Both the position numbers and the translations under genes were made by a program. From IMG/VR virus record IMGVR_UViG_3300037882_001801, positions 1-64,000 of that record: a stretch of DNA of 64,000 nt; one strand, written 5' to 3'. Of this stretch, positions 4,686-59,017 are shown piece by piece. This DNA comes from a virus. Positions within the stretch are counted from its first letter, which is position 1. Every line of letters begins with the position of its first letter. The notes beneath the pieces were generated by a model, which was not told where the DNA came from, did no database searches, and saw nothing but the letters and a program-made list of their open reading frames with translations.

Positions 4686-4689
4686 GTTC

Positions 4690-5521: not shown

Positions 5522-5523
5522 TC

Positions 5524-8690: not shown

Positions 8691-8769
8691 GCTGGACAAG
8701 TTTTGTTTACGTTTGTAATGAATATTCGTAGGGGCGTGTAAAAACGCAAAAAACGGAAAGATCTTTTCG

Positions 8770-9960: not shown

Positions 9961-9993
9961 AACTGAAAACGCCAACCTGGAAATGGTTTTTCC

Positions 9994-12634: not shown

Positions 12635-12655
12635 TTTTCTCAGGAAGAAGCCGAA

Positions 12656-13600: not shown

Positions 13601-13614
13601 AATCAGATTTGGTG

Positions 13615-13643
13615 TTGACGAAAAATACAGACTAGAGTAAGAA
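13615..13643 (+). promoter_or_regulatory. Weak sigma70-like promoter candidate
   Basis: TTGACG (13615-13620), 17-nt spacer, TAAGAA (13638-13643), in the 123-bp gap before 13724. The -10 element is poor. Confidence 0.3.
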
Positions 13644-13723
13644 ACAAGTACCGAGTGCGACGAACCAGTCTATAGAAAAAATCGCACCGTGTCAGCAAGA
13701 TCGAACCAAAGGTAATACACACA

Positions 13724-14460: not shown

Positions 14461-14536
14461 GGGGCGGTAGCTCAGTGGTCAGAGCTGGTGGCTCATAACC
14501 GCTAGGTCGTAGGTTCAAATCCTACCCGCCCTACCA
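14461..14536 (+). tRNA. tRNA with CAU anticodon (elongator Met, or Ile2 if lysidinylated), CCA encoded
   Basis: I folded a 76-nt cloverleaf by hand: acceptor GGGGCGG/CCGCCCT (G1-U72), D arm GCTC-AGTGGTCA-GAGC, anticodon arm GGTGG-CTCATAA-CCGCT, variable AGGTC, T arm GTAGG-TTCAAAT-CCTAC, then A-CCA. It lacks the initiator hallmarks (no 1-72 mismatch, no three G-C pairs in the anticodon stem). Confidence 0.9.
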
Positions 14537-19213: not shown

Positions 19214-19624
19214 TCAGTGAGCCGCGCTGGGCGTCTCTTGGGTGTCGGCTTTCTGCCTTCGCCCTGGTCTGGAACCAGATGCTTGCGCAACGGCGGATGC
19301 AGGTGCGGCTACGACGCCATGCTGGGCCTTGGCCGGAACCTCTTTCTCTTTGAGTGCCCCCGCCGTTTTGAGCGCATGTTTGGCGCAGACTTGCGCGATT
19401 GCGTGTTCCTGTTGGCGTTCGACGGAATCCTTGGCCAGCCAGACAGCGACCTGGGCGTCAGTCGTCTTGCCTTTCGGCAATTCAGGAACGTGGAAATCCA
19501 TAACCTGAGCGCATTCATTTGGCGCAGTCGGCATGAAGCTTGTCGGGAGAAGATTATTCTTCTCGCAAGCGCTGACGCCGAACGCGACGGTTGTGATCAA
19601 AGCCACAGTGCGAAGTTTCGTCAT
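19214..19624 (-). CDS. Lipoprotein (o-spanin candidate or exclusion-type lipoprotein)
   Basis: The signal peptide carries a lipobox (MTKLRTVALITTVAFGVSAC). RBS is AGGGGA. It is the last gene of the lysis cluster, and at 136 aa is long for an o-spanin. Confidence 0.65.
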   Translation of the reverse strand: MTKLRTVALITTVAFGVSACEKNNLLPTSFMPTAPNECAQVMDFHVPELPKGKTTDAQVAVWLAKDSVERQQEHAIAQVCAKHALKTAGALKEKEVPAKAQHGVVAAPASAVAQASGSRPGRRQKADTQETPSAAH

Positions 19625-19660: not shown

Positions 19661-20149
19661 TCACTGTGACGGCGTTCCACTCGGTTTCCCTTTGGTGCCA
19701 CGGACTTCGTTGATTAGATCGATCGTCTCAGACTCGACAGGATCGGGTTTCTCAGTGCGCCAGATGCCGCTGATGACAATAGACAGGATCTTGTCCAGTG
19801 TCTTGACGACATGGGTTGTGATCTTCTGCTCAGCCGCAGTCTCAGCGTTGATCTTCCCCACCTTGTCGATGGTTTCGATGTTTCGTGTCTCGACGCGCGA
19901 TTTTTGCTGTGCGCGTTCACGCGCTGTGAAGTGTTGATTGGCCAACGCGTAGATGCCGGTGCCTATGATCAGAACCAACACGACACGTCCGGCCGTTGTG
20001 TAGACGAACCAGCGTGCTGTTGCGAGAAATCCTTGTGCTGTCGCCGTGATAGGAGACGAGCCCAATTTCAGTAGGCTGAACCCAGCCCGAGCGTACTTGA
20101 CGATGGTTGCAAGCCAACCAACTGCTTTAGCCGTGCTTGAAGAAGACAT
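19661..20149 (-). CDS. Membrane protein of the lysis cluster (i-spanin or holin candidate)
   Basis: A TM segment (VVLVLIIGTGIYAL) is followed by a charged helical region. Its start overlaps the endolysin 3' end by 23 nt. Confidence 0.55.
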   Translation of the reverse strand: MSSSSTAKAVGWLATIVKYARAGFSLLKLGSSPITATAQGFLATARWFVYTTAGRVVLVLIIGTGIYALANQHFTARERAQQKSRVETRNIETIDKVGKINAETAAEQKITTHVVKTLDKILSIVISGIWRTEKPDPVESETIDLINEVRGTKGKPSGTPSQ

Positions 20150-20768
20150 GATTTCCTATCCTTTTCCCTTGCCCTTGAGCCCACGTAGGAAGGGTGCCCC
20201 CAGTCCTGGCCATCACGATGTTTGGCTCCAAGAAGTGAGTAGCACCATCAGTCGGGTCTTGAATGTCTCCTGCGAGACACGCCAAGACCATTTTTTCTAT
20301 GTTTCTGTATCGTTCAGAAGTAGTTGGTATTTCCCACAGATATTCTGCCCTGGACATCCAAGGCTCGAATTGCCACGTGGTTATTTTTCTTCCATTCGCT
20401 AGAGTTCTAGTAGATTTGTGCATTGACACATTGGCGAGTTGGTTCCCGCCATACCATTTTACATTCTTTCGTGCGCGATTGATAATCACCCATACAACTG
20501 CAGCTTGACCAGCTTCTGGTTCGCGAGCGGCTTCACCAATAACGGTTCGAACCACTACATCAATATCCTTGTCGGTGATGATGATATGATCCCAACGCTT
20601 ATTGGTTTGTGGAAACATTACATTTTCATAAGAATCTCTAATAAACCATCCGGCGATTGAGTTAGGCTGATGGAGTTCGAACGCCCAAACGAACAGACCG
20701 AGGGCGAGCGCTGAGAGCCCACCCTCGATTAGCCGATATGTTTTTAGCGTGCGTTTCACGTGAAACAT
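20127..20768 (-). CDS. Endolysin, SleB-type cell-wall hydrolase with N-terminal membrane anchor
   Basis: VVRTVIGEAAREPEAGQAAVVWVIINRARK matches the SleB/Hydrolase_2 core as I recall it. There is an N-terminal hydrophobic segment (LSALALGLFVWAF). Confidence 0.75.
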   Translation of the reverse strand: MFHVKRTLKTYRLIEGGLSALALGLFVWAFELHQPNSIAGWFIRDSYENVMFPQTNKRWDHIIITDKDIDVVVRTVIGEAAREPEAGQAAVVWVIINRARKNVKWYGGNQLANVSMHKSTRTLANGRKITTWQFEPWMSRAEYLWEIPTTSERYRNIEKMVLACLAGDIQDPTDGATHFLEPNIVMARTGGTLPTWAQGQGKRIGNHVFFKHG

Positions 20769-22147
20769 TACCGTTGACGGAGAGCTGCACCAACAACGCG
20801 ACCGTCATGCGAGACTGTGATGTTTGCTGACACACCGATCTCTTTGACCATCGCACCGAAACGGTCGACCGTTGCGTGCGTGATCTGGTTATCACGACAC
20901 CACATCACATAGTCGTCGTGCACGAGCCCGAGCTGCTGCGAAAATGCCGGACCCATGTTCGTGCGCACAGTAAAGTATTTGTGAATCTGCATAGCCATCG
21001 GCTGCTCACGCAATGGCGCATTGGTTAGCGTGTGCGCTATAGCGATGCCAGATTGAGCCGACTGGAATTGCGCAACAGTCTCCAAGACGGAGCGTTGTGC
21101 GACTTCCTTGGCCCGACCGACTGCACGCTCTAACTTCGCCCGACCGAGCATCGCGTTGCGTTCGTCTTTGATCGCAGCGTTGACCATAAATCCATGAGCG
21201 CCCCACAACATGTGGATGATCAGCGCTGCGATAGCAGCAATGATCGAAGCTTTGAACATGGTCACAGTCTCAGGCGTGGTTCCGAGAATTTTAGCCAGAA
21301 CAACATCCTGCGCGTTTGCTGTGCGGACACTTGACCGATTGGAATTCATCATGTTGCCGGTCAGGCGGTTCACGTCAGCGTTAGCTTGAGCCAGAGCCGA
21401 AGCTTCTTCGCGTCCAGTGCTTAGCGCGTTGTACTTCTGACAAAGGTCGCGCTCATTGGACGAACGCTGTTGGCCTCGACAGCCATCAGTACGGTCACCA
21501 AGATTTTCTTTCCTCGTAACCATTGTGGACAGCAGCGCAGCCATCTCAGATTGAAACTGCCCTTCGGATTTTGCCCCGACTCTTGAAGTCAAATCCAAAA
21601 CTTTTTTCTGGGCGATGGCTAAGGCAGAGCGATCTGAACTGGCCACAGCTGCACGCGCTTCTGAACGTGCTGCTGTAGTGTCGGCCCCCGTGCTGAATTT
21701 CGATTGGAGAATCAGCAGCGAAAACGACACACCAAGCCCGAATGCCACAGCCCCGGCAATGCGGACCAGCCAACGTGATTCGCCCTTAGCTCCCCACGAC
21801 AACATGTGAGCCGAAACCGGAATGGTCAGCTCCATTGCGAAGTACAGAATGCCTATGGCGATAGCAGAAACGAGGACGTTCTCCCCGAGCCGTGTCGATG
21901 AGAAGCCATAGTATGAGTTGAGACACGCGAAGCAGAGCGTGCCGGTCAGCAAGACCCAGAACGCTACTGATTTAACGTTGTGTGAAATGACCTGTTGAAG
22001 GTGCGAATCAGACCACGTCTTTTCGTCGGTGAGACGGTGGAGTTCTTCTTCCATACCCGCCAGATCTGTAGGCGGTGGCGCATTATTGGCGTTCGCAGTG
22101 ACAGGTGCGCCAGCACCTGAGCCACCACGCCGAAGGCGAGAGAGCAT
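20768..22147 (-). CDS. 459-aa four-TM / coiled-coil protein, translationally coupled to the endolysin
   Basis: Three TM helices lie at about residues 60-150, then a long Ala/Arg/Glu-rich helical stretch, then a fourth TM (IIAAIAALIIHMLWGAHGF). The C-terminal ~140-aa soluble domain contains DDYVMWCRDNQITHATVDRFGAMVKEIG. Its stop overlaps the endolysin ATG as TAATG. Confidence 0.6.
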   Translation of the reverse strand: MLSRLRRGGSGAGAPVTANANNAPPPTDLAGMEEELHRLTDEKTWSDSHLQQVISHNVKSVAFWVLLTGTLCFACLNSYYGFSSTRLGENVLVSAIAIGILYFAMELTIPVSAHMLSWGAKGESRWLVRIAGAVAFGLGVSFSLLILQSKFSTGADTTAARSEARAAVASSDRSALAIAQKKVLDLTSRVGAKSEGQFQSEMAALLSTMVTRKENLGDRTDGCRGQQRSSNERDLCQKYNALSTGREEASALAQANADVNRLTGNMMNSNRSSVRTANAQDVVLAKILGTTPETVTMFKASIIAAIAALIIHMLWGAHGFMVNAAIKDERNAMLGRAKLERAVGRAKEVAQRSVLETVAQFQSAQSGIAIAHTLTNAPLREQPMAMQIHKYFTVRTNMGPAFSQQLGLVHDDYVMWCRDNQITHATVDRFGAMVKEIGVSANITVSHDGRVVGAALRQR

Positions 22148-40928: not shown

Positions 40929-42692
40929 TTAGGGCTTGTGATCGTCAATAGGGGCTTCGCCTAACAGTTCCCCACGCGCAAATACGATGTTTCTACCTTG
41001 TTCTGGATTGATCAAGAATCTCTCCTTCATTTGGAAATCTTCTGTAGTAGTCTGAGTAGTTGGTTTAGGAGGAATATTATTGCCAGCACCAGTAGGCTTA
41101 CCAAAAGGAGGCTTCCCACCAACACCGCCAGCGGAGTTATTGCTATCACCTTTATCAGCTGCAGGAGTTTTTGTTTTATTGGGTGGGGCATCACCTTTAG
41201 CCGCAATTAGTTTATTGGGGGCAGTTTCGTCTTTATACTCAGTTTCTTTTTCGTCAGCATTAATAGCTTTTGTGCGCGAGATTTGCAGCGGATAGTCCAC
41301 ACCCTCAATAGGCTTTTTATATTCAGCTATGCCTCGCGCGATGTTGGTAAACGCACGCGCTTGCTGTGCTGCGGTCTGACCGCGCTCCAGTGGTGACATC
41401 TGGAAGGCTTCCGGCCATTCGAGCCAGAAACGACCTTGAGGCAATAATTTGAGTGCCTGCAAACGTGTAACAAATGGGCGTAAGATCTTTGGCTCAGCGT
41501 ACAAGACGCGACGCTCATTGATCCTAACTGCCCAGTTTGCCCTATCCTGCTCGGAGGCCAACTTTCCCTGCTCTGAGCCAATAAAGATACGCTGTGGAAT
41601 GCCAGTCGCAATCGAAATCATCGACATCACGACATTGAACACCGGATCAGGGTTGGCAACATCGCTACCCAGGTTGTTGACTTTGGCCCCTCGTGTTCGA
41701 ATAACACGACGTACATCATTCATAAAGTCGTCAACCTCGACACGCATTTTGGCCAGATCGCCTTCTTCCACTTGCATTTCTTTGTCGATGTCGATGTGTA
41801 GACCTTGACGACCGCTGAGCCAGAACATTTCAGCTGCTCCACCGACAACTTTTTCAGCGTCGTCCAGACGGTTGTAGACGCGCTCTACAATGGGGTAGCC
41901 GTTGATTTCGTTATCAAACAAACAATCTGCTACGTGAATGACACGCGTGCGATGGACTTCTAACTCATGACCAGGATTGTTCACGCCGTCTATAACTTCA
42001 GCAGGACCACCTTCAGATTTGTAGCTGCCTTTAGACCCTCGAACCTTAATTTTGTAAGTCTTTGGCATCCCGTATTCCGGGACACTAGGGTTGTCTTCAT
42101 AGTCAACGATGGATACATCGCCAAAACCGAACGCTTGCAGATAGACAAGCTTCTTCACGCGGTTCGCGTCCACAGGAAAAGCCATCTGAGCTTCAGTACG
42201 CACATCGTCAAAGCCAAGGACTAATAGAGAAAATTTACCGATCCCTGCCAAACGATCTACGCGGTTGATGTAGTGGTAGAAGTTGATGTCTTCATCGAGC
42301 TTCCAAATCGCGTCATCCAATTCGCTAAAAAGCGCACCTGCATACGCATCTGTGCCGCTATCTTGCGCGTCAGTATTTGGCCTGCGACGCCGTGACATGT
42401 CTTTCATGTAACGCGGCGGTCTAGTCCATAGCGCATCTGGGTATGCGTTCACCACACGCGAGACGATGTCCAGGCGTTGATATCGTTGCAATGCAGATGC
42501 GTAGTCGACTTCGGCTGTGTAGCCGAATGATGCGTAGAGATCGCGTCGACCTCCATGGGTCTCGCCAAGCTTTGCCGCTAGAAGCGCTCGCGGGCTGACC
42601 GTTGAAGCTAGCGTGAGGTAGCCACGCTTTAACTTTTCAAAGTCTTCGCGTGAGACAACTTTATCGCTCGAAGGTGCCGATTGTGCTGACAT
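40929..42692 (-). CDS. Portal protein
   Basis: About 587 aa, immediately after terL with a TAATG overlap (ATG at 42692; the track start 42698 is TTG). The Pro/Gly/Lys-rich C-terminal tail and the position are canonical. Confidence 0.75.
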   Translation of the reverse strand: MSAQSAPSSDKVVSREDFEKLKRGYLTLASTVSPRALLAAKLGETHGGRRDLYASFGYTAEVDYASALQRYQRLDIVSRVVNAYPDALWTRPPRYMKDMSRRRRPNTDAQDSGTDAYAGALFSELDDAIWKLDEDINFYHYINRVDRLAGIGKFSLLVLGFDDVRTEAQMAFPVDANRVKKLVYLQAFGFGDVSIVDYEDNPSVPEYGMPKTYKIKVRGSKGSYKSEGGPAEVIDGVNNPGHELEVHRTRVIHVADCLFDNEINGYPIVERVYNRLDDAEKVVGGAAEMFWLSGRQGLHIDIDKEMQVEEGDLAKMRVEVDDFMNDVRRVIRTRGAKVNNLGSDVANPDPVFNVVMSMISIATGIPQRIFIGSEQGKLASEQDRANWAVRINERRVLYAEPKILRPFVTRLQALKLLPQGRFWLEWPEAFQMSPLERGQTAAQQARAFTNIARGIAEYKKPIEGVDYPLQISRTKAINADEKETEYKDETAPNKLIAAKGDAPPNKTKTPAADKGDSNNSAGGVGGKPPFGKPTGAGNNIPPKPTTQTTTEDFQMKERFLINPEQGRNIVFARGELLGEAPIDDHKP

Positions 42693-44338
42693 TACCAAGT
42701 CAATCCTTTGAAGATCTTACCGCCGCCACCAGTCTTCCCACGCTCATAACCAGCTTGCAAATCTGGGTTGATTCTTTGCTGGACAATTTTGCCTGCTAGA
42801 ATCAACTGCTGGTGCTCATAGTTAGTTTGACCCCAAGCAATATCGATTGGCTCGTCAGAGAACAAGTGGTTGTAGCCCATTGATGCTGTGTCTACTTGGT
42901 CATCATGCCCGCCGCTTGAAGGTGGGAAGGCACTAAATTCATCACGGAAAGTTGTTACCCACTCTGGTTCATTTATAGGTTGACCATTTGGACCTACTAG
43001 AGAGCTTTCTGGTACACCACTGTTGTCTACACAAAAGACGTTGCCACCTTCTGCCGATGCAATGAAAGGTATGGCTTTAACAGTTTTGTTTTTATTCCCA
43101 GCTGGAACACTAATCACAGTAAATTCTGGTAAGACGTTCTTTTTATAGTGCTCGAAAAGTTGCAAGCTTTGTGATCCGGGTTCGGTTTCTAGTAAGACTG
43201 TAGTCTCTGTGCCGTCCGCCACGGCAGCTCTACGAATCTCAGTTTCGATCTTGTTAGGTGACAGCTGCTTACGAATGATGTTCCAGACATAGGCTTGGCG
43301 CAGACGCCCCTTGCGTGACATCTTTGTCCCGACCAACCAGTCACCGCCACCTTGTGTCGCGGCGAAGTCCCACGCGCGAACGAAACGATGACCTTCAGGA
43401 GCTACCTGTTTAATAACCTGAAGCCAGCGACCATCGGTAAATGTCGTCTGGTTGTCTATCGGCGTCTGCTGGAACAAGGCTTCGAAAATCGTACCACTTA
43501 GCTTCATGGCACGTTGCAGCTCAGCAAGTCGACGGATCGGATAACGCTCGGGGAAAAGCACATCCCCATAGGAGCGACCTAATATGTCACGCGCCTGAAA
43601 ATCCGGGAGACCGTCCTTCATTGGGCGATAGATGCCAGGGAAGCAAATGTTCTCCCAGATGTTGGCAGGCTGTTCAGTGATCGGGTCGACTTGCAGGCTG
43701 GTCAAGATCCGGCCGATCAAGTCATCGGACCACCAACGCGTCGCCACGATGATGACCGACGCACCCGGCTCCAAACGCGTGTAGATGTTGGCAATGAAAT
43801 TGTTCCACATCTTATCGCGTTCGTTCTTCGACATCGCCTGTTCGATGCCTTTGATGTAGTCGTCGATGATGACAAGATGCGCGCCTTTACCCGTCACACC
43901 ACCGTTGATCCCGCCGAACCAGCAGATGTTGCCACGAGTAGTCTCAAAGCGATCAACACGAGAACGATCTTCACGAACGTTATACGAGAATAAATCTTGA
44001 CGCTTCTTAATAATGTCTTTGGCTTTCATACCCCATTCTTCAGCAAAATCTCCATTGTAGGCTACGAACAAAATGTTCATTCCAGGAAACTTTTCCAAGA
44101 ACCAAGGAATTGTAGATTCAGAAACCAAACGCGACTTGCCGTGTCGAGGCGGCATACTAACAACCAAACGACCATCACCACGCATAATGTGGTGTACAAT
44201 GCGCGAAGACGCATTCATTAAATGTTTTTGAGGTATCCAGCGTTCACGACCTTCGGGCCATAGCGCCATTGCAAGAGTCGCAGGTGTCAAGAAAGGGTCT
44301 AAAAGACCGTTGCTCATAGCGATCATTTTTAAGTTCAC
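42692..44338 (-). CDS. terL: Terminase large subunit
   Basis: Walker A-like is MPPRHGKSRL and Walker B is HLVIIDDY. The C-terminal nuclease-like region contains VIIVATRWW and HDDQVD. The start is GTG 44338 or ATG 44326. Confidence 0.85.
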   Translation of the reverse strand: MNLKMIAMSNGLLDPFLTPATLAMALWPEGRERWIPQKHLMNASSRIVHHIMRGDGRLVVSMPPRHGKSRLVSESTIPWFLEKFPGMNILFVAYNGDFAEEWGMKAKDIIKKRQDLFSYNVREDRSRVDRFETTRGNICWFGGINGGVTGKGAHLVIIDDYIKGIEQAMSKNERDKMWNNFIANIYTRLEPGASVIIVATRWWSDDLIGRILTSLQVDPITEQPANIWENICFPGIYRPMKDGLPDFQARDILGRSYGDVLFPERYPIRRLAELQRAMKLSGTIFEALFQQTPIDNQTTFTDGRWLQVIKQVAPEGHRFVRAWDFAATQGGGDWLVGTKMSRKGRLRQAYVWNIIRKQLSPNKIETEIRRAAVADGTETTVLLETEPGSQSLQLFEHYKKNVLPEFTVISVPAGNKNKTVKAIPFIASAEGGNVFCVDNSGVPESSLVGPNGQPINEPEWVTTFRDEFSAFPPSSGGHDDQVDTASMGYNHLFSDEPIDIAWGQTNYEHQQLILAGKIVQQRINPDLQAGYERGKTGGGGKIFKGLTW

Positions 44339-44935: not shown

Positions 44936-45188
44936 GGCTTTTCAAGCTCGAAGATTCTCTACAAAATGCGGTTGACGAGAGGCGTGCTCCACAGCATGTT
45001 GTGCCTCTGGCCGTAGCGTTGAGCTTCCACGCCAGTGCGAGCGAACCACTCGCAGAATCAAACAGTCAGCAACATGAACCAGCAGCGTGACCAGACGTTG
45101 CCGGGGGCTAGTATATAGTGGCGGCATATCTCCACATCTATCCACTCGGCATGTCCGTGAGCGCGCTTTTTGCGTCACGAGAACACAC

Positions 45189-48100
45189 ATGCAATTCGCA
45201 CGGCACTTCACCAAACACCTCGCCCCGAACCACGGCCAAGAGTGGTCACCTCAAAACATTCACAACGCCATCCAGTGGAAGAAATTCGATATCCTGATCG
45301 GCTCGAAATCGAAACCGATCCTCGAAATGGAAGTCGAGGCTCCGGCGACATGGTTCCAGAACGCTGTCGACATCCTGGCGCACAAGTACCTGCGCAAGTC
45401 AGGCGTCCCCAACCGGACGGCACCATCAGTGCGCACCGATGACGAATCGGTCCCTCGGTGGTTGGATGTTCAACACCCAGCGATCGGTTCAATCTTCGGC
45501 CGCGAGACCTCTGCCAAACAGGTCTTCCACCGACTGGCCGGTCATTGGACCTACGAGGCTTTCAAGGCTGGCTACTTCGACGCCCACAGCGCAAACTCAG
45601 AAGACAATAACGTTTCACGTGAAACGCACGCGCAGATCTTCTACGACGAAATCTTCTGGATGCTTTCACACCAGATGGCCGCTCCCAACTCTCCACAGTG
45701 GTTCAACACCGGCCTCTACTGGGCCTACGGGATTGCAGGCGATGCAGACACCAACCTGTGGCGCGCACCCCACATCGGTCACGAGGCAACCAACATCGAC
45801 GGTTGCTACATCACGCCCCAGGTCTCGGCTTGCTTCATCCTCGGCGTCGACAACAATCTGGTTCAAGCAAACGGAATCCTCGACACTCTCCGCAAAGAGG
45901 CGACGATCTTCAAATATGGTTCCGGTAGTGGGATCAATTTCTCGACGCTTCAGGCCGTCAATACACCGTTGAAGAACGGTGGTGTTTCCAGCGGCGTCAT
46001 GAGCTTCCTTAAGATTTTCGACACAGCTACGGGCTCAATCAAGTCTGGTGGTACAACGCGTCGCGCAGCATCTATGCGCATCATCGATGCAGATCACCCT
46101 GAAGCGCTTCAATTCGTCGAATGGAAATCTCGCGAAGAAGCAAAAGCTAAAGCATTGATCCAAGCCGGAAAGAGCGCGCGTAATCAAAAAGAAAACGCTG
46201 CTATCACACAAATACCAACAGACTTTGATACCAACACGCTCGCTGAAATAACCGACTTCTACGAAGGGGATGCCTACACCACTGTCTCTGGCCAGAACTC
46301 AAACAACTCGCTTCGTGTCACAGACACGTTCATGAAAGGTCTTAGAGAAGAACCTTCCAAGGTGTCGAGCGATCGTATTATCTCTGAAGTCACACGCAAC
46401 CAAAAACTCTTTGATAAGGCTACTGAAGCTGCACATCGTTGTGGCGATCCTGGAATGCAGTTCCACGACACGATCAACAGGTGGCACACGATCCCGAAGC
46501 ATTCCGAACAGCGCGCGACCAACCCATGCTCGGAATATAGCTTCATCGACAATTCCTCGTGCAACCTCGCATCGCTCAATCTGGTGAACTTCCTCAGCTC
46601 AATTACGAAAGGACCAGAAGCTGAATTTGGAGTGGGCCATTTCGATTCTGAGAGCTTCCGCTACGCGTGTCGTATGTGGACCATTGTCCTCGACGTGTCA
46701 GTTGGCATGGCCTCTTACCCAGATAAGCAAGTCGCCGAAAACTCAGTGAACTACCGTGCGATCGGCCTGGGCTACGCCAACCTCGGTGGTCTCTTGCTCC
46801 TGCTGGGCGTCCCTTACGATTCCAATGAAGGCCGTCGCGTGGCTGCAATGATCACTGCGGTCATGCACGGTCAGGCCGGGTGGACATCAGCTGAGATCGC
46901 AGGTGAACTCGGTGCCTTCCATGATTTTGACTTGCACGCCTCAGACACACTCAACGTCTGGAACATGCATAAAAAGGCGGTATCCGAACTTGGAGATGAA
47001 ATCGTCGCAAATTCGAACATCCCACATGGACAGACACACCCATTACACAACTTGTTCAAGGATCTGGCCGATCTCTGGGGCTTGTCGGACAACAAACGCC
47101 CAACTGAGTTCCGCAACGCACAGCTGACTTTGCTTGCTCCGACAGGCACCATCGGTATGGTGATGGATTGCACTGCGACCGGCATTGAACCGTGCTTCTC
47201 TCTGCACGCGACAAAGAAACTTGCCGGTGGTGGTCAAATGACCCTCGTGAACGAACTGGTCGGGGATGCCTTAACCGGCCTCGGTTACACCAACGCTCAG
47301 ATCAGCGACATCGAACAGTACATCGCGCAACACGGTAATGTCGGCTACGCGTGCCCACATATCCTTCCAGGGCACATGAAAATCTTCGACTGCGCTAACG
47401 ATATCGACCCAATAACAGGTCACGTCGGTATGATGGCAGCAGTTCAACCATTCCTCAGTGGCGCAATATCCAAAACTGTCAACATGCCAAAGTCAGCTAC
47501 AGTAGATGATGTGAAAAATGTTTATCTGACTGCTTGGCAGCAAGGTTTAAAAGCAGTTGCAATTTACCGCGACGGCTGTAAAGACAGCCAGCCGGTTACC
47601 GCTTCGGCGTCTAACGGTAAGGCGTCAGCAACCGCTCCAGTAGTGCCACCTACCAGGACCGAAATTGCTGGCGCCATTAACACTAAGCCTGCACCTACAC
47701 AGCAGCTCTCAACGCGAGCACTTCCGCCACGCGGTCAGATCTCCTCACGCTATAAACTGCCCAGCAAGCGTAACGGTTTCACTATCAAGGTGAACATCGG
47801 TGGCCAATCCCTGTACTTGCGCACTGGCGAATATCCAGATGGCCGTCTCGGGGAAGTCTTCCTTTCCATTGGCAAAGAAGGCTCTGGTCTGCGCCACATG
47901 GTCGACACCAGCGCCATGCTGATCTCGATTGCACTGCAACACGGCGTGCCACTCGAATCGATACGCAACTCCTTCATTGATTCGAAGTCGGACCCGTCAG
48001 GTCTGGTCATTGGATCAGATACCGTACGCACATGCACCTCGATCATCGACTATGTCGTTCGCGAGCTGTGGGCACAGTATGGCTCCAAAGAGACGGTTCT

Positions 48101-48395
48101 GAGTATCGAAGTGCAGTCTCCTGAACCCGGTGAACACAAGCTGTCGATCGAACCAGCGTTGGGCGCACAAGGCCCCGAAGTCGTTCTCCCACTGAAACGT
48201 GAGCCGTTGAAGCTGATCACTTCGAACATCCCAGGCGTCGAGGGCGGTACGGGTGAGCTTCAAGCGGGTGCTGTCCGCACGATGGCGCAGAAGTACAGCG
48301 GGGATGCTTGCCGCGAGTGCCATGAATATAAACTGGTCCGCTCAGGCTCTTGCTACACCTGTCAGGCTTGCGGAACGACCACAGGATGCTCATAA
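45189..48395 (+). CDS. nrdJ: Class II (adenosylcobalamin-dependent) ribonucleotide reductase NrdJ
   Basis: Active-site TNPCSEY with SSCNLASLNL. The N-terminus MQFARHFTK resembles long alphaproteobacterial NrdJ proteins. The C-terminal Cys cluster is CRECHEYKLVRSGSCYTCQACG. I prefer ATG 45189 over the upstream GTG 45087. Confidence 0.9.
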   Translation: MQFARHFTKHLAPNHGQEWSPQNIHNAIQWKKFDILIGSKSKPILEMEVEAPATWFQNAVDILAHKYLRKSGVPNRTAPSVRTDDESVPRWLDVQHPAIGSIFGRETSAKQVFHRLAGHWTYEAFKAGYFDAHSANSEDNNVSRETHAQIFYDEIFWMLSHQMAAPNSPQWFNTGLYWAYGIAGDADTNLWRAPHIGHEATNIDGCYITPQVSACFILGVDNNLVQANGILDTLRKEATIFKYGSGSGINFSTLQAVNTPLKNGGVSSGVMSFLKIFDTATGSIKSGGTTRRAASMRIIDADHPEALQFVEWKSREEAKAKALIQAGKSARNQKENAAITQIPTDFDTNTLAEITDFYEGDAYTTVSGQNSNNSLRVTDTFMKGLREEPSKVSSDRIISEVTRNQKLFDKATEAAHRCGDPGMQFHDTINRWHTIPKHSEQRATNPCSEYSFIDNSSCNLASLNLVNFLSSITKGPEAEFGVGHFDSESFRYACRMWTIVLDVSVGMASYPDKQVAENSVNYRAIGLGYANLGGLLLLLGVPYDSNEGRRVAAMITAVMHGQAGWTSAEIAGELGAFHDFDLHASDTLNVWNMHKKAVSELGDEIVANSNIPHGQTHPLHNLFKDLADLWGLSDNKRPTEFRNAQLTLLAPTGTIGMVMDCTATGIEPCFSLHATKKLAGGGQMTLVNELVGDALTGLGYTNAQISDIEQYIAQHGNVGYACPHILPGHMKIFDCANDIDPITGHVGMMAAVQPFLSGAISKTVNMPKSATVDDVKNVYLTAWQQGLKAVAIYRDGCKDSQPVTASASNGKASATAPVVPPTRTEIAGAINTKPAPTQQLSTRALPPRGQISSRYKLPSKRNGFTIKVNIGGQSLYLRTGEYPDGRLGEVFLSIGKEGSGLRHMVDTSAMLISIALQHGVPLESIRNSFIDSKSDPSGLVIGSDTVRTCTSIIDYVVRELWAQYGSKETVLSIEVQSPEPGEHKLSIEPALGAQGPEVVLPLKREPLKLITSNIPGVEGGTGELQAGAVRTMAQKYSGDACRECHEYKLVRSGSCYTCQACGTTTGCS

Positions 48396-52838: not shown

Positions 52839-53123
52839 CTAATCCATACCAAGATCGGCGCCAATTATACGTGCCCCTTCTAGTGCTGCAGTTTTGATAA
52901 ACCCAAATCCGCCAGCGTCAAGTTCGCCCATACACAATCCGTAATCATTCGCGTTGACGATCAAATCATGTATAAACTTTGCGCGTAATCTAGGTCTTCT
53001 ACTAATTTTACAAATACTTTTATTGCTTATTCTTCCACGTGATTCACCATTTTTTTCTACTAATTTAGCTATCAGGCTAAGTGTTTCTTCTACGGATAAG
53101 TATTGCATGTGTTCAGTCTCCAT
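52839..53123 (-). CDS. Hypothetical 94-aa protein, markedly AT-rich gene
   Basis: Clean ATG ORF downstream of the 377-aa minus-strand gene. No motifs recognised. Confidence 0.55.
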   Translation of the reverse strand: METEHMQYLSVEETLSLIAKLVEKNGESRGRISNKSICKISRRPRLRAKFIHDLIVNANDYGLCMGELDAGGFGFIKTAALEGARIIGADLGMD

Positions 53124-53246: not shown

Positions 53247-54380
53247 CTAAGGTGTTTCGTCTGGGGGTTCATCTTTGGAACGTGCAGCCAGCATTGTTTC
53301 GATCGCGAGCGCTTGTAGCTTCTCAGCAGCGGCCGGGTCATTGGCCATAAAGTCGTCAAGCTTTTTGCGAAAGCGGCCGATTTCGGATTCTTCTTCCTGT
53401 TTCAAGCCATGGTAGTTGGTGACGCTATCTTGAATGCCACGCGCTACGGAGGCGTGTGGTGCAGGCTGGAAACCAGCATCTTTGAGAGGTTTCGGCCCTG
53501 TGGCTGGGTGGCCAAGAGCTGTACGCTGCATGCGTACCAGGGTGTCGATCCCAGCGATAAGATCCTTGGCCTGAAGTCCCGCCCACGGCCTGCCATCCTG
53601 ATCATCGAAGCGCTGTTTGATCTCCGTTTCTAGCTGATCGATGAGCCGCCCAGTCAACTTGAAGTGCTTGTCTTCCACGTCGAGGATGCGCTGGTCTCGT
53701 AGTCTGGCTGCCGCGACCGGCTGCAGGATGTCATAGGAGCGGGCACGTTCTTCCCAGTAGTAGAACGTGTAGATATCCAGCTGGTCGAGTTCCAGCGCTG
53801 AAGTGTTGAGGTTGGCTGTGGCCTTGCTCTTACTGGTTTTGCCCGTCTGCTGAAGCTGTGTGGCCTTCTGAAGGGCGCGGTTGTCTGTGGCAGGTGTTAG
53901 CGGCTGACGCTCTGCGGAGCGCAGGTAGAGCTGAAAATCCTGATGAAAGTGGTCAGGCTCATGTGGGAGCTTCAACCACACCGGCTGCTGATGCTGGCGC
54001 CGGGTTTTCGGGTTGGTGTGCGAAAACGCATGGTAGCCCTCAATCATGGATAATGGGATCTTGGCCGCTTCGAGAATCTGATTTTGCTTCTGGGCAGGTT
54101 TGTTGGCGAAGTTCGCAGGGAGCTTCGTGAAATCAATGAAGTATTGCAGGTAGAAGTTCCGGTCGCGTGGCGTGTTTGCGACGATACGCCTGAACGTTTC
54201 AATAAACGGTTCCAGCGAGGGAGATTCGATCTCTCCGTCGAGAATATCGTGCTTGAGCTGCTTAAGCTGTGTTGTCTTGGTCTGATTCATGGGGTGAATG
54301 ATTAGCAGTTCTGGTTCTGCATGGGCAAATAGTTTTGGCGCTAAACCGCGCATAAATTTTTTGATCAGGGTGCTGAGCAA
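53247..54380 (-). CDS. Hypothetical 377-aa protein (orphan; start TTG 54380 or ATG 54353)
   Basis: Long clean ORF with helical, charged, Gln-rich sequence. It is divergent from the 54834 cassette. No catalytic or nucleotide-binding motifs seen. Confidence 0.6.
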   Translation of the reverse strand: MLSTLIKKFMRGLAPKLFAHAEPELLIIHPMNQTKTTQLKQLKHDILDGEIESPSLEPFIETFRRIVANTPRDRNFYLQYFIDFTKLPANFANKPAQKQNQILEAAKIPLSMIEGYHAFSHTNPKTRRQHQQPVWLKLPHEPDHFHQDFQLYLRSAERQPLTPATDNRALQKATQLQQTGKTSKSKATANLNTSALELDQLDIYTFYYWEERARSYDILQPVAAARLRDQRILDVEDKHFKLTGRLIDQLETEIKQRFDDQDGRPWAGLQAKDLIAGIDTLVRMQRTALGHPATGPKPLKDAGFQPAPHASVARGIQDSVTNYHGLKQEEESEIGRFRKKLDDFMANDPAAAEKLQALAIETMLAARSKDEPPDETP

Positions 54381-54473
54381 AATAGTTTTTCAAAAATTGG
54401 CTGACACCCACCAGTACTGAGCAACAACAGTCGCCGGGCACGCGCGTCTGCCCAAGAAAGTTACTTTGTCAAG

Positions 54474-54608
54474 TCACAATCTTGTGATCGATCTTATCAC
54501 ATCCCTAGTCGTTTGGTAGCTTGACTATCCTAATGCACATCGTTAGAACTGTGATTGTCAGGACGGCGACGGACTGACGAACTAGCCTACCGCTCTTTGA
54601 CATTGTGA
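54474..54608. promoter_or_regulatory. Cluster of five TGTGA/TCACA half-sites (candidate operator array)
   Basis: TCACA 54474, TGTGA 54483, TCACA 54497, TGTGA 54550, TGTGA 54604. It includes TCACAATCTTGTGA and the palindrome GATCGATC. About 0.3 such sites would be expected by chance in 135 bp. Confidence 0.5.
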
Positions 54609-54833
54609 GAACTAACAGACTTGACCTAGCTACCTAGTCAGTAGCATCGCGCTAAACGCGTCCTCATGACGGTGTAAGGCTCCGTCGAACTATCGCAGGA
54701 CAGATCACCTAGACGGTATCTGCACACTGCTCTTGCCAACCCTGCTACTAGCGTAGCTTAGGCATATGGACAGAGTACCAATTAATTAAACCGGCAACCA
54801 TGCCAACCCAAACTAATGGAAAGCACACACGCC

Positions 54834-55319
54834 ATGAACAATCTCCCGAAAACTCTCCGTATCTCGCTTGCAGTGATCGCAACCGTCTTCGGCTCGGCAT
54901 CGGCCTTCGCGCAGGGTCAGCCCGCCACGACTCCAGGTGCTGCTCCTGGCACGACCGCGCAAGTGCCGCCGCGTGCACCGACTCCAGGTGCTGCTCCTGG
55001 CACGACCGCGCAAGTGCCGCCGCGTGCACCGACTCCGGCCGCAACTGGTGCTGCTACTACTGGTCTGGCATCGACGCGCGTCAAAGGTTCGTCAACCCCG
55101 GAAGTGGCACGTCGGGACTATGCCGCCAAGCTGGCGACACGTCAGTCCGCATGCACCGCTAAAGGCGCGTTGTATCGCTGGAAAGCACCGCACAATGTGG
55201 GCGACGCAATCGCGGGCAGCAATCCCGTCCAATATTGGGCCACTACCTTTAACGGCGGTTGCGTCCAGGTCGGGCTGAAAGACGCGCTTGCTTCTGGCGC
55301 CGTGCGACTCGCACAGTGA
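54834..55319 (+). CDS. Secreted protein with Pro/Thr/Ala-rich repeat linker
   Basis: Signal peptide MNNLPKTLRISLAVIATVFGSASAFA/QG. TPGAAPGTTAQVPPRAP is exactly duplicated. I prefer ATG 54834 over 54816. Confidence 0.65.
   Translation: MNNLPKTLRISLAVIATVFGSASAFAQGQPATTPGAAPGTTAQVPPRAPTPGAAPGTTAQVPPRAPTPAATGAATTGLASTRVKGSSTPEVARRDYAAKLATRQSACTAKGALYRWKAPHNVGDAIAGSNPVQYWATTFNGGCVQVGLKDALASGAVRLAQ
54928..55036 (+). repeat. Exact 51-bp tandem duplication (2 copies plus 7 nt)
   Basis: 54928-54978 is identical to 54979-55029, and the next 7 nt also match. The repeat is in frame (17 codons). Confidence 0.95.
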
Positions 55320-55795
55320 CAGAGTACAAGGAGTCGATTGACCACGCGGCACTAGCCCGCGACGTTCAGTTAATCCTAGATCACCTCACTAGGCCAGATT
55401 GGCCTAGTGCGGTGCCCTATCTTGGCGCGTCCCCAAGCCAAGAGTCGGCACCGCATCAAGTTATGTGTGCTCCCCCTGTGCATGTAACCGATGCGGTGCC
55501 GCACCCCTTACCGATGCCAGATAATCCGCCGCAAGAGATCGAACCACACCCATTAGCGACAATGCTTTTGCAGGCTTTACCGCCTGAAATGCAGCATCCT
55601 GTCGGTGTGGTTCTAAATCGTCTTTCAGGGCGGAAATTAGCGCTAGTTGTCCTGGCAACGGCATCCGCTGGCATGGCTTACGGAATTATTCCTAAGCCAC
55701 AATTGCTAGTGGATGTAATCGCTTACGTTAAATCGTCGGGTAATGCACCTACGCAATGCCCGCCACTGATTCCCGTACCACAACCACAAGGCTAA
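55316..55795 (+). CDS. Hypothetical Pro-rich protein with C-terminal TM helix
   Basis: GTG 55316 overlaps the preceding TGA (GTGA). The TM helix is LALVVLATASAGMAYGII. No RBS, so the start is uncertain. Confidence 0.45.
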   Translation: MTEYKESIDHAALARDVQLILDHLTRPDWPSAVPYLGASPSQESAPHQVMCAPPVHVTDAVPHPLPMPDNPPQEIEPHPLATMLLQALPPEMQHPVGVVLNRLSGRKLALVVLATASAGMAYGIIPKPQLLVDVIAYVKSSGNAPTQCPPLIPVPQPQG

Positions 55796-55800
55796 CTCCC

Positions 55801-56172
55801 ATGACAAAGCGCAAAAGCGCACACGTCGACACAGTTAAACCGTTGCCGATTGTGCACGTGCAGACAATGCCGTCGCCGGAATACCTGTCAAAACTGGTGA
55901 CGGAAAAACTAATAGACGATGCGGCTAAGCCGGCACGTGCCAGATTCGACCGTCTTAAGGAGATGGCGAAACTCGATTGGGGGACGGGCGAAAATGCACG
56001 CCGTGAGGCGTGGATTATCCCGCATCCTGATGATCAGAATCGGCTGTACATGGTGCGCGTCGTCGTCGTGCCTAAACAGATGATTTGCCGCTGTCCAGCG
56101 TCCGAATACACGCGAACAGAACACCATCTCAAGATTGAGGCTTGCGGCGCGTTGCCGCCAGTCAAAGCCTAA
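55801..56172 (+). CDS. Hypothetical basic protein with Cys/His cluster
   Basis: ATG 55801. ICRCPASEYTRTEHHLKIEAC loosely resembles a SWIM-type CxC...H motif. Confidence 0.55.
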   Translation: MTKRKSAHVDTVKPLPIVHVQTMPSPEYLSKLVTEKLIDDAAKPARARFDRLKEMAKLDWGTGENARREAWIIPHPDDQNRLYMVRVVVVPKQMICRCPASEYTRTEHHLKIEACGALPPVKA

Positions 56173-56843
56173 TGTTGGTTAGATTGGCACTTGCGCTAGG
56201 GGTTATCGCGCTAGCGGTAGCCTCTGGCGCTAACAATCTCTCACACACTAAGGCGTATGGTTGGGAGATTGTGATTCTTGTCGGTGCGGCGGAGCTGCTG
56301 AAATTGGTGTTGCCCCTGGCGATGCTAGTTTTCGCAAAATCGCATCAACCTGCAAGGTGGATTGCAGCACTCTTTATGTGGGCGTTAATCGTCGTTTTTT
56401 CGGCCGTGAATACGTTTGGCAACGTAATTACAGTGCACGCGACGAAAAAGGCAAACATGCAAGAGGCACGACAGAACCACACGTCGCGACAAGAGCATGT
56501 GATTCTGCGCGACATTAGCAACGTTGCTACGTGCAACGCGACTGTTGTAGGCAAAGGCAAAAATCGCGTTACGTTTCCGCCTGATGAGCAATGTGTGGAA
56601 AACCGCAAAAACAAAATTGCGGCGTTTCAATCAGAGCTGCAAAAGGCTAAGGAAACGCCTGTAGCGGGCGCGAAAGTAGATGCGTTCGCGGTCGAGGACG
56701 GTTATGTGATGACGGCCGCGTTATTCGGTTGGTATCCAAATCGGAATCAAATCGCGATTTACATGTTGCTTTTGTGGGTTGCGCTTTGTGAGATCGGTTC
56801 TGCGTTGGGTGGATTTTGCATACCAGAGCGCAAAAAGCAGTAA
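56172..56843 (+). CDS. Four-TM membrane protein (3 TM, helical segment, C-terminal TM)
   Basis: TAATG overlap with the previous gene. TM helices: LALALGVIALAVASGA, IVILVGAAELLKLVLPLAMLVFA, WIAALFMWALIVVFSAV and IAIYMLLLWVALCEIGSALGGF. Confidence 0.65.
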   Translation: MLVRLALALGVIALAVASGANNLSHTKAYGWEIVILVGAAELLKLVLPLAMLVFAKSHQPARWIAALFMWALIVVFSAVNTFGNVITVHATKKANMQEARQNHTSRQEHVILRDISNVATCNATVVGKGKNRVTFPPDEQCVENRKNKIAAFQSELQKAKETPVAGAKVDAFAVEDGYVMTAALFGWYPNRNQIAIYMLLLWVALCEIGSALGGFCIPERKKQ

Positions 56844-56901
56844 TGGAGTTAAATAGCGCCGCGCGAATGCGGCGCACTTTCTAAATCAGTTGGGGGCTAT
56901 C

Positions 56902-57105
56902 ATGCAAAATACAGTCACGACTATTCAAATCTCGAAAGATAAACTAATCGCATCATTCAAAGCGACATTCAAACACAGCGACATTTGTGTTGAGTATCTA
57001 GAAGTTATTATCGACATAATCCGCGCGACACCTGAAAATCTTTTGCAATCGCGCGTATTATTCGATGACAGAGTAATGCTCGCAATTGCGCAATGCGCAA
57101 ACTGA
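56902..57105 (+). CDS. Hypothetical 67-aa protein
   Basis: ATG 56902 has GGGGG upstream. Its stop lies inside the palindrome GAGATAA-CA-TTATCTC. Confidence 0.5.
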   Translation: MQNTVTTIQISKDKLIASFKATFKHSDICVEYLEVIIDIIRATPENLLQSRVLFDDRVMLAIAQCAN

Positions 57106-57136
57106 GATAACATTATCTCAAGTAACATTATAAAAG

Positions 57137-57165
57137 CCTCTTGCGAAAGCGAGGGGCATTTTTGC
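57137..57165 (+). terminator. Intrinsic terminator with GAAA tetraloop
   Basis: GCCTCTTGC-GAAA-GCGAGGGGC (9 bp, including G-U pairs) followed by ATTTTTGCGTTT. Confidence 0.75.
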
Positions 57166-57173
57166 GTTTATAA

Positions 57174-57280
57174 TAATCAGTGTACTGATTATAGAATATA
57201 AATAACATTATTAATTACTAATAGCATTATTGATTACTAATAACATTAATAATAGAATAATAATAACATTATTAAATTTT
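57174..57280. repeat. AT-rich iteron-like array
   Basis: Palindrome ATAATCAGT-GT-ACTGATTAT (57174-57193). A 19-bp tandem pair follows: AACATTATTAATTACTAAT (57205-57223) and AGCATTATTGATTACTAAT (57224-57242). Further AACATTA(T/A) copies lie at 57243 and 57266, with two more upstream at 57109 and 57125. Confidence 0.85.
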
Positions 57281-57424: not shown

Positions 57425-57670
57425 CTATTCTTTCTGGGCTATCAGCTTAGCCTTGTGTGCACTGTCACCTCCAGGGCTTTCCATAGACCCACGTGTATTA
57501 TTACAGACAGGACAGCATACATCTGTGGGTTGGCACTCCGACCACTTCCCTACATAGTAGGTCTCGCATCCACTGCACGATATGCCAAACGTGTCAGGAT
57601 CTGCTGCGTCGATCGCCTTGAGGAATTCCTCATCGCCCCGTAATGCTGCACCCATGAATGCCGAACTCAT
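57425..57670 (-). CDS. Small Cys-rich zinc-ribbon protein (81 aa)
   Basis: ATG 57670 has a strong AGGAGG RBS; the track start 57694 is GTG. Motif: CSGCETYYVGKWSECQPTDVCCPVCNN. Confidence 0.65.
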   Translation of the reverse strand: MSSAFMGAALRGDEEFLKAIDAADPDTFGISCSGCETYYVGKWSECQPTDVCCPVCNNTRGSMESPGGDSAHKAKLIAQKE

Positions 57671-57703
57671 AGTCACCTCCTGTGTAGGGTCCACACTACT
57701 ACC

Positions 57704-58252
57704 ATGCCACTGATAACCAACAAGTCGCTCAGAGACTATACTGGCCTGAAGATAGATCAGGTCACTGTCCTAGGCAGAGCTAAGGACTACTCTGTGAAGT
57801 TGGCTATGCCGGGGGTAGAGGTCAAGCCGAAGAAGCTATGGCGCCTACAGTGCAGCTGTGGAAACGTGTGGGTTCTACCTCACTCACAAATCTCTGAGTA
57901 TGGCCCTCGCACATGTAAGACGTGCGCACCAAAGGCCCGAGACAACAAACCTATTGCGCCCAGAGGCAAGTATCACAAACAGACCCACCCCTCATATGGG
58001 ACGTGGTATGCGATGATCAGAAGATGCACGTCACCTAAACATGTAAACTACCATAGGTATGGAGGTAGGGGTATAACTGTTTGCGCAAGATGGATGGACT
58101 TTGATCTATTTGTTGAGGATATGGGGATACGACCCGATAACCAAAGTATAGATCGAAAAGATAACTCTAAAGGATACTACAAAGCTAACTGTCGGTGGGC
58201 TACAGCGAAAGAGCAACGCGCAAATCAAACCAAGAAAACGAATTTAAAATGA
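57704..58252 (+). CDS. Homing-endonuclease-like / DNA-binding protein (conserved YGGRGI...DRKDN...NCRWA motifs)
   Basis: YGTWYAMIRRCTSPKHVNYHRYGGRGITVCARW...SIDRKDNSKGYYKANCRWATAKEQ matches a widespread family that I recall being annotated as HNH-like or AP2-like. No obvious RBS. Confidence 0.5.
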   Translation: MPLITNKSLRDYTGLKIDQVTVLGRAKDYSVKLAMPGVEVKPKKLWRLQCSCGNVWVLPHSQISEYGPRTCKTCAPKARDNKPIAPRGKYHKQTHPSYGTWYAMIRRCTSPKHVNYHRYGGRGITVCARWMDFDLFVEDMGIRPDNQSIDRKDNSKGYYKANCRWATAKEQRANQTKKTNLK

Positions 58253-58530: not shown

Positions 58531-58645
58531 AATAAACGTAGGGAGTGAATGACAGAGACGAACGGGCACTAGCCTAACAGTCTAACGTCAACCGCCTAAG
58601 CTAATGACCGTCTAGCAGGGACGCCCTATCGTGGGCGACACGTCA

Positions 58646-59017
58646 ATGTCTTATGCGCTCCAGAATGCTTCCGGCCTTATCTCGCAATACCCGGCTGTTG
58701 ACTTGTTCCGATTGCGCCAAGCACGCAATTCCACGGCGCAAAAGCCGGAAAAGGTGCGCGTTAAGGCGGACACCCTAACCTATCACGTCCGCTATGTGAC
58801 TATGTGCGACGCAAACAACCTGCACGCTGATCTCAAAGAACCGTGGAATCATGTCATCGATGGCAAAGGTCACTTTGTCCAGAGCAAGCGTTGGCAAGCG
58901 CTCAAACAATGGGCACACGCTAAGACAGCAGAACTAGGCGATTCTGCCTTGCTTGTCGCCGCGTACCTTGTGCGAAACGATACCAACGAAGTCGTGGTGC
59001 AGCTCAAGCTGCTCTGA
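58646..59017 (+). CDS. Hypothetical protein (123 aa; alternative GTG 58631)
   Basis: Clean ORF flanked by long ORF-free regions. No motifs recognised. Confidence 0.55.
   Translation: MSYALQNASGLISQYPAVDLFRLRQARNSTAQKPEKVRVKADTLTYHVRYVTMCDANNLHADLKEPWNHVIDGKGHFVQSKRWQALKQWAHAKTAELGDSALLVAAYLVRNDTNEVVVQLKLL

Follow-up and report, generated by a model that had tools for sequence, protein, structure and literature searches.

A probable fixed operon of predicted secreted and membrane proteins beside the likely small terminase gene of an uncultured phage lineage

Introduction

Does a compact block of genes for secreted and membrane proteins, standing in a phage genome between a long leader and a terminator, represent acquired cargo or a fixed part of the phage, and what might it do in the infected cell? 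We addressed this question for five plus-strand genes, here called A to E, which lie between positions 54834 and 57105 of a 64,000-nucleotide stretch of viral DNA (the window; IMG/VR record IMGVR_UViG_3300037882_001801, positions 1 to 64,000). An earlier reading of this DNA from its letters alone (the sequence-only reading) had described the block, or cassette, as an insulated and separately regulated unit behind an operator-rich leader, divergent from an orphan gene, and had taken it as the signature of a moron.

The window comes from a novel siphovirus-like phage, and the lineage to which it belongs consists of uncultured tailed phages of 60-90 kb. Our analysis leads to a different view of the block. 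We consider it very likely that A, B, C and D form a co-translated, vertically inherited and fixed operon of this one phage lineage, transcribed divergently from the gene for the small terminase subunit (terS, product TerS) and encoding undescribed protein families.

Results

The cassette holds one position across the lineage

The five open reading frames (ORFs) of the cassette lie where the sequence-only reading had placed them (Table 1), as both a mechanical ORF listing and direct reading confirmed, and the start/stop overlaps described for B (its GTG lies within GTGA) and for D (its ATG lies within TAATG) are present. A to D are real, tightly coupled genes for predicted secreted and membrane proteins. 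The statement that none of the ORFs could be placed in a known family also holds, since A to E have no match in Pfam, PHROGs, PADLOC, NCBIfam or the PDB sequences. Similarly, PDB sequence and profile searches with A, B, C, D and the divergent neighbour, F377, returned nothing, nor did scans of IMG/VR with single proteins.

Gene contexts were recovered for the related contigs L001, L002, L003, L005-7, L008, L010-12, L013 and L014, which represent seven to eight lineages. Where the flanks are visible, the order is the large terminase subunit (TerL, minus strand), a class II ribonucleotide reductase (RNR, plus), a DnaA_C-type helix-turn-helix (HTH) gene (minus), F377 (minus), an A-type gene, small ORFs and D (plus), with an HNH endonuclease gene further on. 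The block is at the same position in L001, L002, L003, L005-7, L008, L010-12 and L013, with 28-78% identity, and F377 adjoins it in all relatives. The coupling of D recurs as well, the D gene beginning within the last 1-11 nt of the ORF before it in five lineages (the window, L002, L005, L008 and L011). As judged from the homologues recovered, the conserved core of the cassette is D, A and usually B, with C and E restricted to parts of the lineage. B was found in L001, L002, L003, L005 and L008 and is positioned after D in L013; it was not recognisable in L010-12. In L010-12 the gene at the position of A encodes a product of 91 aa, which has both a signal peptide and a Cys pair but for which homology to A was not demonstrable, and in L013 two inserted genes part terS from A.

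Between the window and its distant relatives, identity amounts to 43-49% for RNR, 44-62% for HNH, 37-43% for F377, 28-38% for D and 30-51% for A; the cassette and the terminase small subunit have diverged about equally fast. These identities indicate purifying selection on the cassette at the rates of core genes.

These observations bear directly on whether the block is a moron, that is, horizontally acquired and separately regulated cargo for defence, anti-defence or host conversion, an origin that we now regard as highly improbable. The window copy does resemble lambda-type morons in being a compact block between an intergenic leader and a terminator. Acquired cargo would also fit with a terminator that belongs to the window copy, with AT-rich flanks, with a function that cannot be assigned from known families, and with the shuffling of the surrounding small genes (E, the 94-aa ORF g94, the 128-aa ORF g128 and the HNH insertion). 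Unlike lambda-type morons, however, the block is not sporadic, its third codon positions are not foreign and it was not found outside the lineage. A and D stand at the same position in every relative, and B in most; the D family is found in this synteny only; searches with D and TerS profiles found no copy in the genomes of 185,579 prokaryotic species (one each); and against the PADLOC-DB defence profiles none of A to E had a match at E <= 0.1. The reported contrast in GC content is real (0.538 for the cassette against ~0.39 for the flanks and 0.497 for the window), but it comes with no shift in GC at third codon positions (GC3), which is 0.41-0.61 in A to E and thus within the 0.34-0.63 of 37 other phage genes. 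Only A is GC-rich overall (0.64), because of its Pro, Ala, Gly and Thr codons, which act at codon positions 1 and 2, and the AT-rich flanks are g94, E and an AT-rich repeat array. The description as an insulated unit is not supported by the relatives either, in which D is followed by further overlapping small ORFs and not by E and a terminator. Conservation at the same position in all relatives without a compositional shift was what the sequence-only reading had itself named as evidence against its proposal, and this is what the synteny and GC3 comparisons found.

Predicted products of the cassette

D is the best-conserved member of the cassette. Its proposed pattern of three N-terminal transmembrane (TM) segments and a fourth at the C-terminus was borne out by hydropathy (hydrophobic segments at about 1-23, 31-55, 60-88 and 193-218) and by an AlphaFold2 model built on a 19-sequence alignment, with a predicted local distance difference test (pLDDT) score of 87.4. 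The helices of the model match the hydropathy segments, with TM1 at 2-24, TM2 at 31-56, TM3 from 60 in a helix that runs to 101, and TM4 at 191-216, and the loop before TM4 is modelled as helices 108-116, 139-161 and 173-184 with a beta-hairpin at 124-135. By the positive-inside rule, the termini are presumably cytoplasmic and the loop of ~100 aa periplasmic. Conserved residues (alignment A3) are K44, W70, S77, N80, N84, R106, C121, C141, E155, E207, S210 and G213, and in three TM helices the conserved residues line up as a polar stripe on a single face (E41/K44, S77/N80/N84 and E207/S210/G213). The pair C121/C141, probably closed as a disulfide, brackets the segment that is most variable in length.

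When 1.84 billion cluster representatives were searched exhaustively with HMMER, 18 clusters of the D family were retrieved, all full length (205-268 aa) and reaching down to 25% identity, while a word-indexed search with D gave only itself and one protein at 78% identity. Neither tblastn of D against GenBank phages nor an exact-sequence look-up of the window D found anything. Foldseek searches of the D model against PDB and BFVD detected no matching fold (best E 0.36 and 0.17, TM-scores <=0.32).

The likely start of A is 54834, because its homologues begin at the signal peptide. In agreement with the sequence-only reading, hydropathy gives a single N-terminal hydrophobic segment followed by AFA/QG, and the aligned cleavage site of the homologues reads AFAQ, SFAQ, ALAQ or ANAQ (A-x-A/Q kept). 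By its conserved n-h-c signal peptide, A is predicted to be a Sec-type secreted protein. Five homologous clusters of A were found. The Pro/Thr/Ala linker varies in length. The exact 51-bp tandem duplication described in this linker is present (54928-54978 and 54979-55029) and is lacking in the A of L001, which is 17 aa shorter. C23, C59, PH, GD and the Pro of NP are invariant in the A alignments (A5, A10 and A11).

The Pro-rich character of B (16% Pro) and its single C-terminal TM segment (residues 107-126 of 159) were likewise confirmed, and the family shares a layout of N-terminal helical segment, Pro-rich linker, the motif HPLAxxLLxxLPxExQ, TM segment and short tail (alignments A6 and A13).

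C has an isoelectric point of 9.4 and no hydrophobic segment. The CRCP-x10-HH-x6-C cluster noted in this basic protein exists (C96, C98, H108, H109 and C115), but it is not a feature of the family: the homologues (alignment A12) share two Cys in a short loop and E107, H109 and K111, nothing else, with a Cys spacing that varies between CxC, CxxC and Cx4C, and C115 and H108 occur in the window and L001 only. The assignment of C as a zinc-type protein was not upheld either, as four conserved Cys/His ligands are absent, only two Cys and one His recur, and Pfam gave no zinc-finger match. A search of 5.8 billion proteins with C found only itself; the gene is confined to the closer relatives, and other small ORFs occupy its place in L010-13. 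E has a homologue in L001 only (34% identity), and unrelated small ORFs follow D in the other relatives.

Between D and E lies a GC-rich hairpin with a weak T tail (-17.2 kcal/mol), whose fold z-score is just -0.8 and which the terminator scan did not call. The GAAA-loop terminator announced for the end of the block is present after E, with its hairpin at 57136-57157, a 9-bp stem, a T run and a fold z-score of -3.4.

The divergent gene is very probably the small terminase

F377, which had been described as an orphan, is very probably a TerS-family protein. Three members of its family matched phrog_6299, 'terminase small subunit' (E 0.017, 2.2e-5 and 4.6e-5), a moderate similarity to a PHROG whose name is itself annotation-based. 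Moreover, tblastn detected a distant homologue in the Brevundimonas phages MaInes and StAshley, and hhalign aligned the F377 family profile with MaInes gp47 at 98.1% probability (E 1e-13). MaInes gp47 shares its strand with the annotated TerL and immediately precedes it, the Brevundimonas homologue filling the TerS slot, and beside the TerL of the window no TerS candidate was found. Taken together, this evidence makes it very probable that F377 is the small terminase subunit. It differs from the Brevundimonas homologue in not standing directly upstream of TerL in this lineage, where the RNR gene intervenes (a distance of 9 kb in the window), and in being transcribed alone; DNA binding and oligomerisation are putative for F377.

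A conserved element in the intergenic region

The true terS-A intergenic region is probably 54291-54833. The five TGTGA/TCACA half-sites reported for the 435-bp leader are all there, where 0.89 would be expected, and five were reached in 0.5% of the 435-bp windows of the sequence. They are not conserved in the relatives, though, being absent from L001-L008. What had been called an operator-rich leader is therefore specific to the window phage in its half-sites, and the conserved parts of the leader are other blocks. We also considered an array of CRP-type operators and rejected it, as the only dyad is TCACA-N4-TGTGA, not TGTGA-N6-TCACA, and is unconserved.

Alignment of the leader across six lineages, whose flanking proteins are 30-45% identical, revealed a conserved element with two repeats and, further towards A, a second block (Table 1). 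Counterpart repeats in the terS-A regions of L002, L003, L005 and L008 read GGGTAC(T/G)GAG and are ~44-52 bp apart, and CAACCCTG is conserved near the ribosome-binding site of A. A structured RNA or riboswitch was ruled out as an explanation of the leader block by RNAalifold (-0.42 kcal/mol, no compensatory pairs) and by Rfam, which gave no match at E <= 1 on 52.5-58 kb. Because there is neither an Rfam match nor a conserved RNA structure, the element would act at the DNA level. It could comprise regulatory sites for the divergent terS/A pair or, by analogy, it could be a terminase recognition (cos/pac) site, as cosB or pac repeats adjoin terS genes. A promoter scan of the leader called no sigma-70-like site, and by eye no conserved sigma-54 or sigma-70 match was found.

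Surrounding genes and observations on the relatives

Near-identical DNA to the window was not found among GenBank phages, whose closest TerL is <=32% identical to that of the window. The TerL gene is followed by portal, capsid and tail genes, including one for a 1600-aa tape-measure protein, and the window also encodes a DNA polymerase, a helicase and an exonuclease. A single tRNA-Met (CAT) gene (14461-14536, +) lies just upstream of the DNA polymerase gene.

The lysis block of the phage (19.2-20.8 kb) holds an endolysin, probably of the signal-anchor-release (SAR) type or SAR-like, together with o-spanin-like and i-spanin-like ORFs, and this rules out the cassette as the lysis cassette of the phage. 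The holin slot is taken by a 459-aa protein (20768-22147, -), whose gene overlaps the start of the SAR-like Hydrolase_2 endolysin gene and whose gross architecture is that of D: three TM segments, a long coiled coil, a fourth TM segment and a C-terminal domain. Paralogy of D with this four-TM protein was ruled out on sequence (BLAST E > 3; hhalign probability 1.3%).

Small genes shift position within the module. The AT-rich ORF g94 (94 aa; 52839-53123, -; GC 0.39, GC3 0.31) is unrelated to the DnaA_C-type HTH gene that takes its position beside terS in L002, L003, L005 and L010-12. The ORF g128 (128 aa; 58631-59017), downstream of HNH in the window, has its homologue between A and B in L002 (6836-7189). 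An 89-aa acidic protein of the zinc-ribbon type with six Cys (57425-57694, -) adjoins the HNH endonuclease. Immediately past the cassette terminator, four AT-rich direct repeats of 19-23 nt with the core ATAACATTATTAA (57188-57275) resemble iterons and may serve as an origin or for regulation. A TROVE (Ro60-like) gene lies between TerL and RNR in L005 (958-2505) and L006 (221-1768), and none is there in the window.

The contig L001 is peculiar in two respects. At 2766-3340 an HNH-like ORF (3033-3308, -) is inserted exactly at the C/D junction, and the end of the C ORF, ...RMLVRLG, is a duplicated copy of the D N-terminus; this looks like a homing-endonuclease insertion. In addition, in its phage-derived part (1-6200, GC 0.50) terS, A, B, g89, HNH and g128 have homologues that are interrupted by frameshifts or stops, with C and D intact, and the rest (6200-14027, GC 0.59) carries GAF-cyclase and Cache genes. 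The contig may represent either an assembly chimera or what is left of a decayed prophage, perhaps with selective retention of D. Given ~7 disruptions over ~4.2 kb, D would be intact by luck with a chance of ~0.3.

Table 1. Features of the cassette, its intergenic region and the genes discussed (window coordinates)
Feature	Position	Strand	Remarks
o-spanin-like ORF	19214-19624	-	lipobox; lysis block
Hydrolase_2 endolysin	20127-20768	-	N-terminal TM segment rich in Gly/Ala; SAR-type or SAR-like
TerL	42692-44338	-	followed by structural genes
Large RNR subunit	45087-48395	+	counterparts in related contigs with class II domains
F377, probable TerS	53247-54290	-	likely ATG start 54290; mechanical TTG start 54380
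Conserved element	54368-54465	.	aligns across six lineages; single copy in the 64-kb window
Repeats GT(R)CTGAGCAA	54370-54380, 54414-54424	.	within conserved element
TCTGCC	54447-54452	.	within conserved element
AAAGTTACT	54457-54465	.	within conserved element
Palindrome TCACAATCTTGTGA	54474-54487	.	two of the five half-sites; not conserved in L001 or more distant relatives
TTGTCA(A/G)GACG	54555-54565	+	second conserved leader block, six lineages
A	54834-55319 (mechanical start 54816)	+	Sec-exported, predicted periplasmic
A, signal peptide	54834-54911	+	ends AFA/QG
A, C-terminal domain	55086-55316	+	~75 aa; invariant Cys pair
B	55316-55795	+	predicted bitopic membrane protein, 159 aa
C	55801-56172	+	small, basic, predicted cytoplasmic
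D	56172-56843	+	predicted four-TM inner-membrane protein, 223 aa
GC-rich hairpin	56856-56875	+	between D and E; weak T tail
E	56902-57105	+	67 aa, acidic, GC 0.40
Intrinsic terminator	57136-57165	+	9-bp stem, GAAA loop, T run
HNH endonuclease	57704-58252	+	phrog_374, E 1e-43; comes after the cassette in most relatives

Discussion

The cassette is thus very likely an inherited part of its lineage, and the range of envelope functions that the sequence-only reading had listed for it still stands. Among these, we tentatively propose that A-D conditions the envelope of a cell that is already infected, be it to resist further phage attack or to respond to it, acting either in superinfection exclusion or in sensing followed by lysis delay. 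This proposal, which draws on analogy with known phage systems, seems to us possible, with doubt outweighing belief. In such a mechanism the products would gather at the inner membrane with D as the membrane core, and B would contribute a second TM protein and a cytoplasmic domain. A, exported by Sec and cut after AFA, would use its Cys-pair domain, at the end of a flexible Pro/Ala/Thr spacer, to act in the periplasm, and C would be a dispensable accessory in the cytoplasm. Either the entry of DNA across the periplasm and inner membrane would be blocked, or superinfection would be sensed and lysis delayed. That the proteins may form a complex is suggested by the coupling and co-occurrence of A, B and D, and a role in the recognition of partners by the hypervariability, which is confined to the A linker (including its recent 51-bp duplication) and to the Cys-flanked hairpin of D. 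We also count in favour of an envelope function that the canonical lysis genes lie away from the cassette.

Several phage systems offer a model for such activities. T4 Spackle is an early periplasmic exclusion protein (PMC7677548), and SieA of P22 blocks the delivery of DNA at the inner membrane (PMC10883804). In T4, the antiholin RI, a periplasmic protein whose signal peptide is cleaved off, binds the holin T and acts alongside the cytoplasmic RIII (PMC8385771, PMC11413866). Like Spackle, Imm and SieA, the products of the cassette would be phage proteins of the periplasm or inner membrane whose site of action is the infected cell's envelope, and the variability of A and D is concentrated in their predicted exposed parts, as would be expected of an exclusion-type function. 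In contrast, homology to these proteins was not detected, and the known ones are single proteins, often patchy, whereas the cassette is a lineage-wide multi-gene operon. The cassette and T/RI/RIII have three kinds of product in common: one that is soluble, periplasmic and made with a cleavable signal peptide, one that sits in the membrane and has a domain in the periplasm, and a small one in the cytoplasm. In both cases the genes stand apart from the endolysin gene. The cassette differs in having no sequence or fold similarity to the T4 proteins; moreover, holin T has one TM segment and D has four, and the genes of the T4 set are dispersed, in contrast to the single coupled operon of A-D. The resemblance to these T4 and P22 systems is therefore put forward as a proposal of how the cassette may work, not of membership.

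A number of results weigh against conditioning of the envelope. No similarity in sequence or fold to exclusion, antiholin, holin or defence proteins was found: Pfam, PHROGs, PADLOC and NCBIfam gave no match to a known superinfection exclusion protein (Imm, Spackle, SieA or Sim), and Foldseek against a PDB release late enough to include the 2020 Spackle structure returned nothing for D. It returned nothing for A either, although the AlphaFold2 model of A is poor (pLDDT 62), too low for that result to carry weight, and this poor model is itself a weakness of the proposal. Known exclusion genes are usually patchy among relatives, and the cassette is universal in its lineage. As no prophage copy was found in the 185,579 species genomes, a role in lysogens is unlikely. 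Finally, the cassette shares its regulatory region with the late-type terS, so that early expression is an assumption.

That shared intergenic region would suit a lysis effector: D would trigger the SAR-type endolysin as its holin or pinholin, and the antiholins would be A in the periplasm and C or B in the cytoplasm. We regard this as unlikely, even though several features are in its favour: the endolysin has its Gly/Ala-rich N-terminal TM segment and spanin-like genes next to it, there is no small canonical holin nearby, the holin slot is filled by the atypical 459-aa four-TM protein, D has conserved charged and polar residues in its TM segments and a short basic C-terminus, and the layout parallels T4 T/RI/RIII (PMC8385771, PMC11413866). 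Yet neither A-E nor any of the 19 D-family members matched a holin, antiholin or lysis family of Pfam or PHROGs, and the lysis genes are 34 kb away on the other strand, the cassette standing among non-structural genes. A 223-aa four-TM protein with a folded periplasmic domain is also unlike the three canonical holin classes. Likewise, D is the sole intact large ORF in the decayed copy of L001, which would be odd for a lethal protein, a point that chance could explain. The linkage to terS could instead reflect a platform for genome handling, with D and B tethering replication, packaging or an incoming DNA end to the inner membrane and the conserved repeats beside terS serving as a cos/pac or organiser site, which we hold to be very unlikely. 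Every lineage has the cassette linked to terS, with the conserved single-copy repeat element between them, B and C have cytoplasmic domains, C is basic, and membrane proteins of phi29 do organise replication at the membrane. A DNA-binding domain was not detected in B, C or D, however; A is periplasmic and the D loop is predicted to be so, neither of which a cytoplasmic tether needs; and the two genes inserted in L013 break the adjacency of terS and A.

The model of D itself raises the idea of an ion or small-molecule channel or a membrane enzyme, with its polar stripes as conduction path or active site and A as a periplasmic substrate or cofactor. The polar residues on one helical face in three TM segments would agree with this, as would R106 and E155, invariant at the border of membrane and periplasm, and the confident model of a compact helical D. 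Against it, no transporter, channel or enzyme fold was similar (best Foldseek TM-score 0.32), and the Pfam and NCBIfam transporter matches were at noise level (E > 0.01). We find such a function very unlikely.

It is tempting to speculate further, by way of a quite unlikely combination, that A, B and D constitute an unseen machine of the inner membrane and periplasm, built on a new four-TM fold with a network of polar residues inside the membrane and a hypervariable, probably disulfide-closed hairpin, which detects or blocks incoming phage DNA or gates lysis throughout the lineage, and that the GGGTACTGAG repeats mark a packaging or genome-end site. If the repeats did mark such a site, the operon would be the first or the last DNA to enter the cell.

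For the annotation of phage genomes, our results carry two lessons: a GC-rich block bounded by a terminator need not be a moron, and what looks like a "hypothetical" neighbour, here F377, probably encodes the small terminase that was missing from this phage group. They also delimit three new protein families, A, B and D, the last with a confident model and no structural neighbour. Most of the known envelope-acting systems are single proteins, and they come from a few model coliphages. If its function is confirmed, the cassette would be a multi-protein, lineage-wide addition to the few phage systems that act on the envelope of the infected cell, and its significance would grow if A, B and D were shown to be a machine that responds to superinfection or gates lysis.

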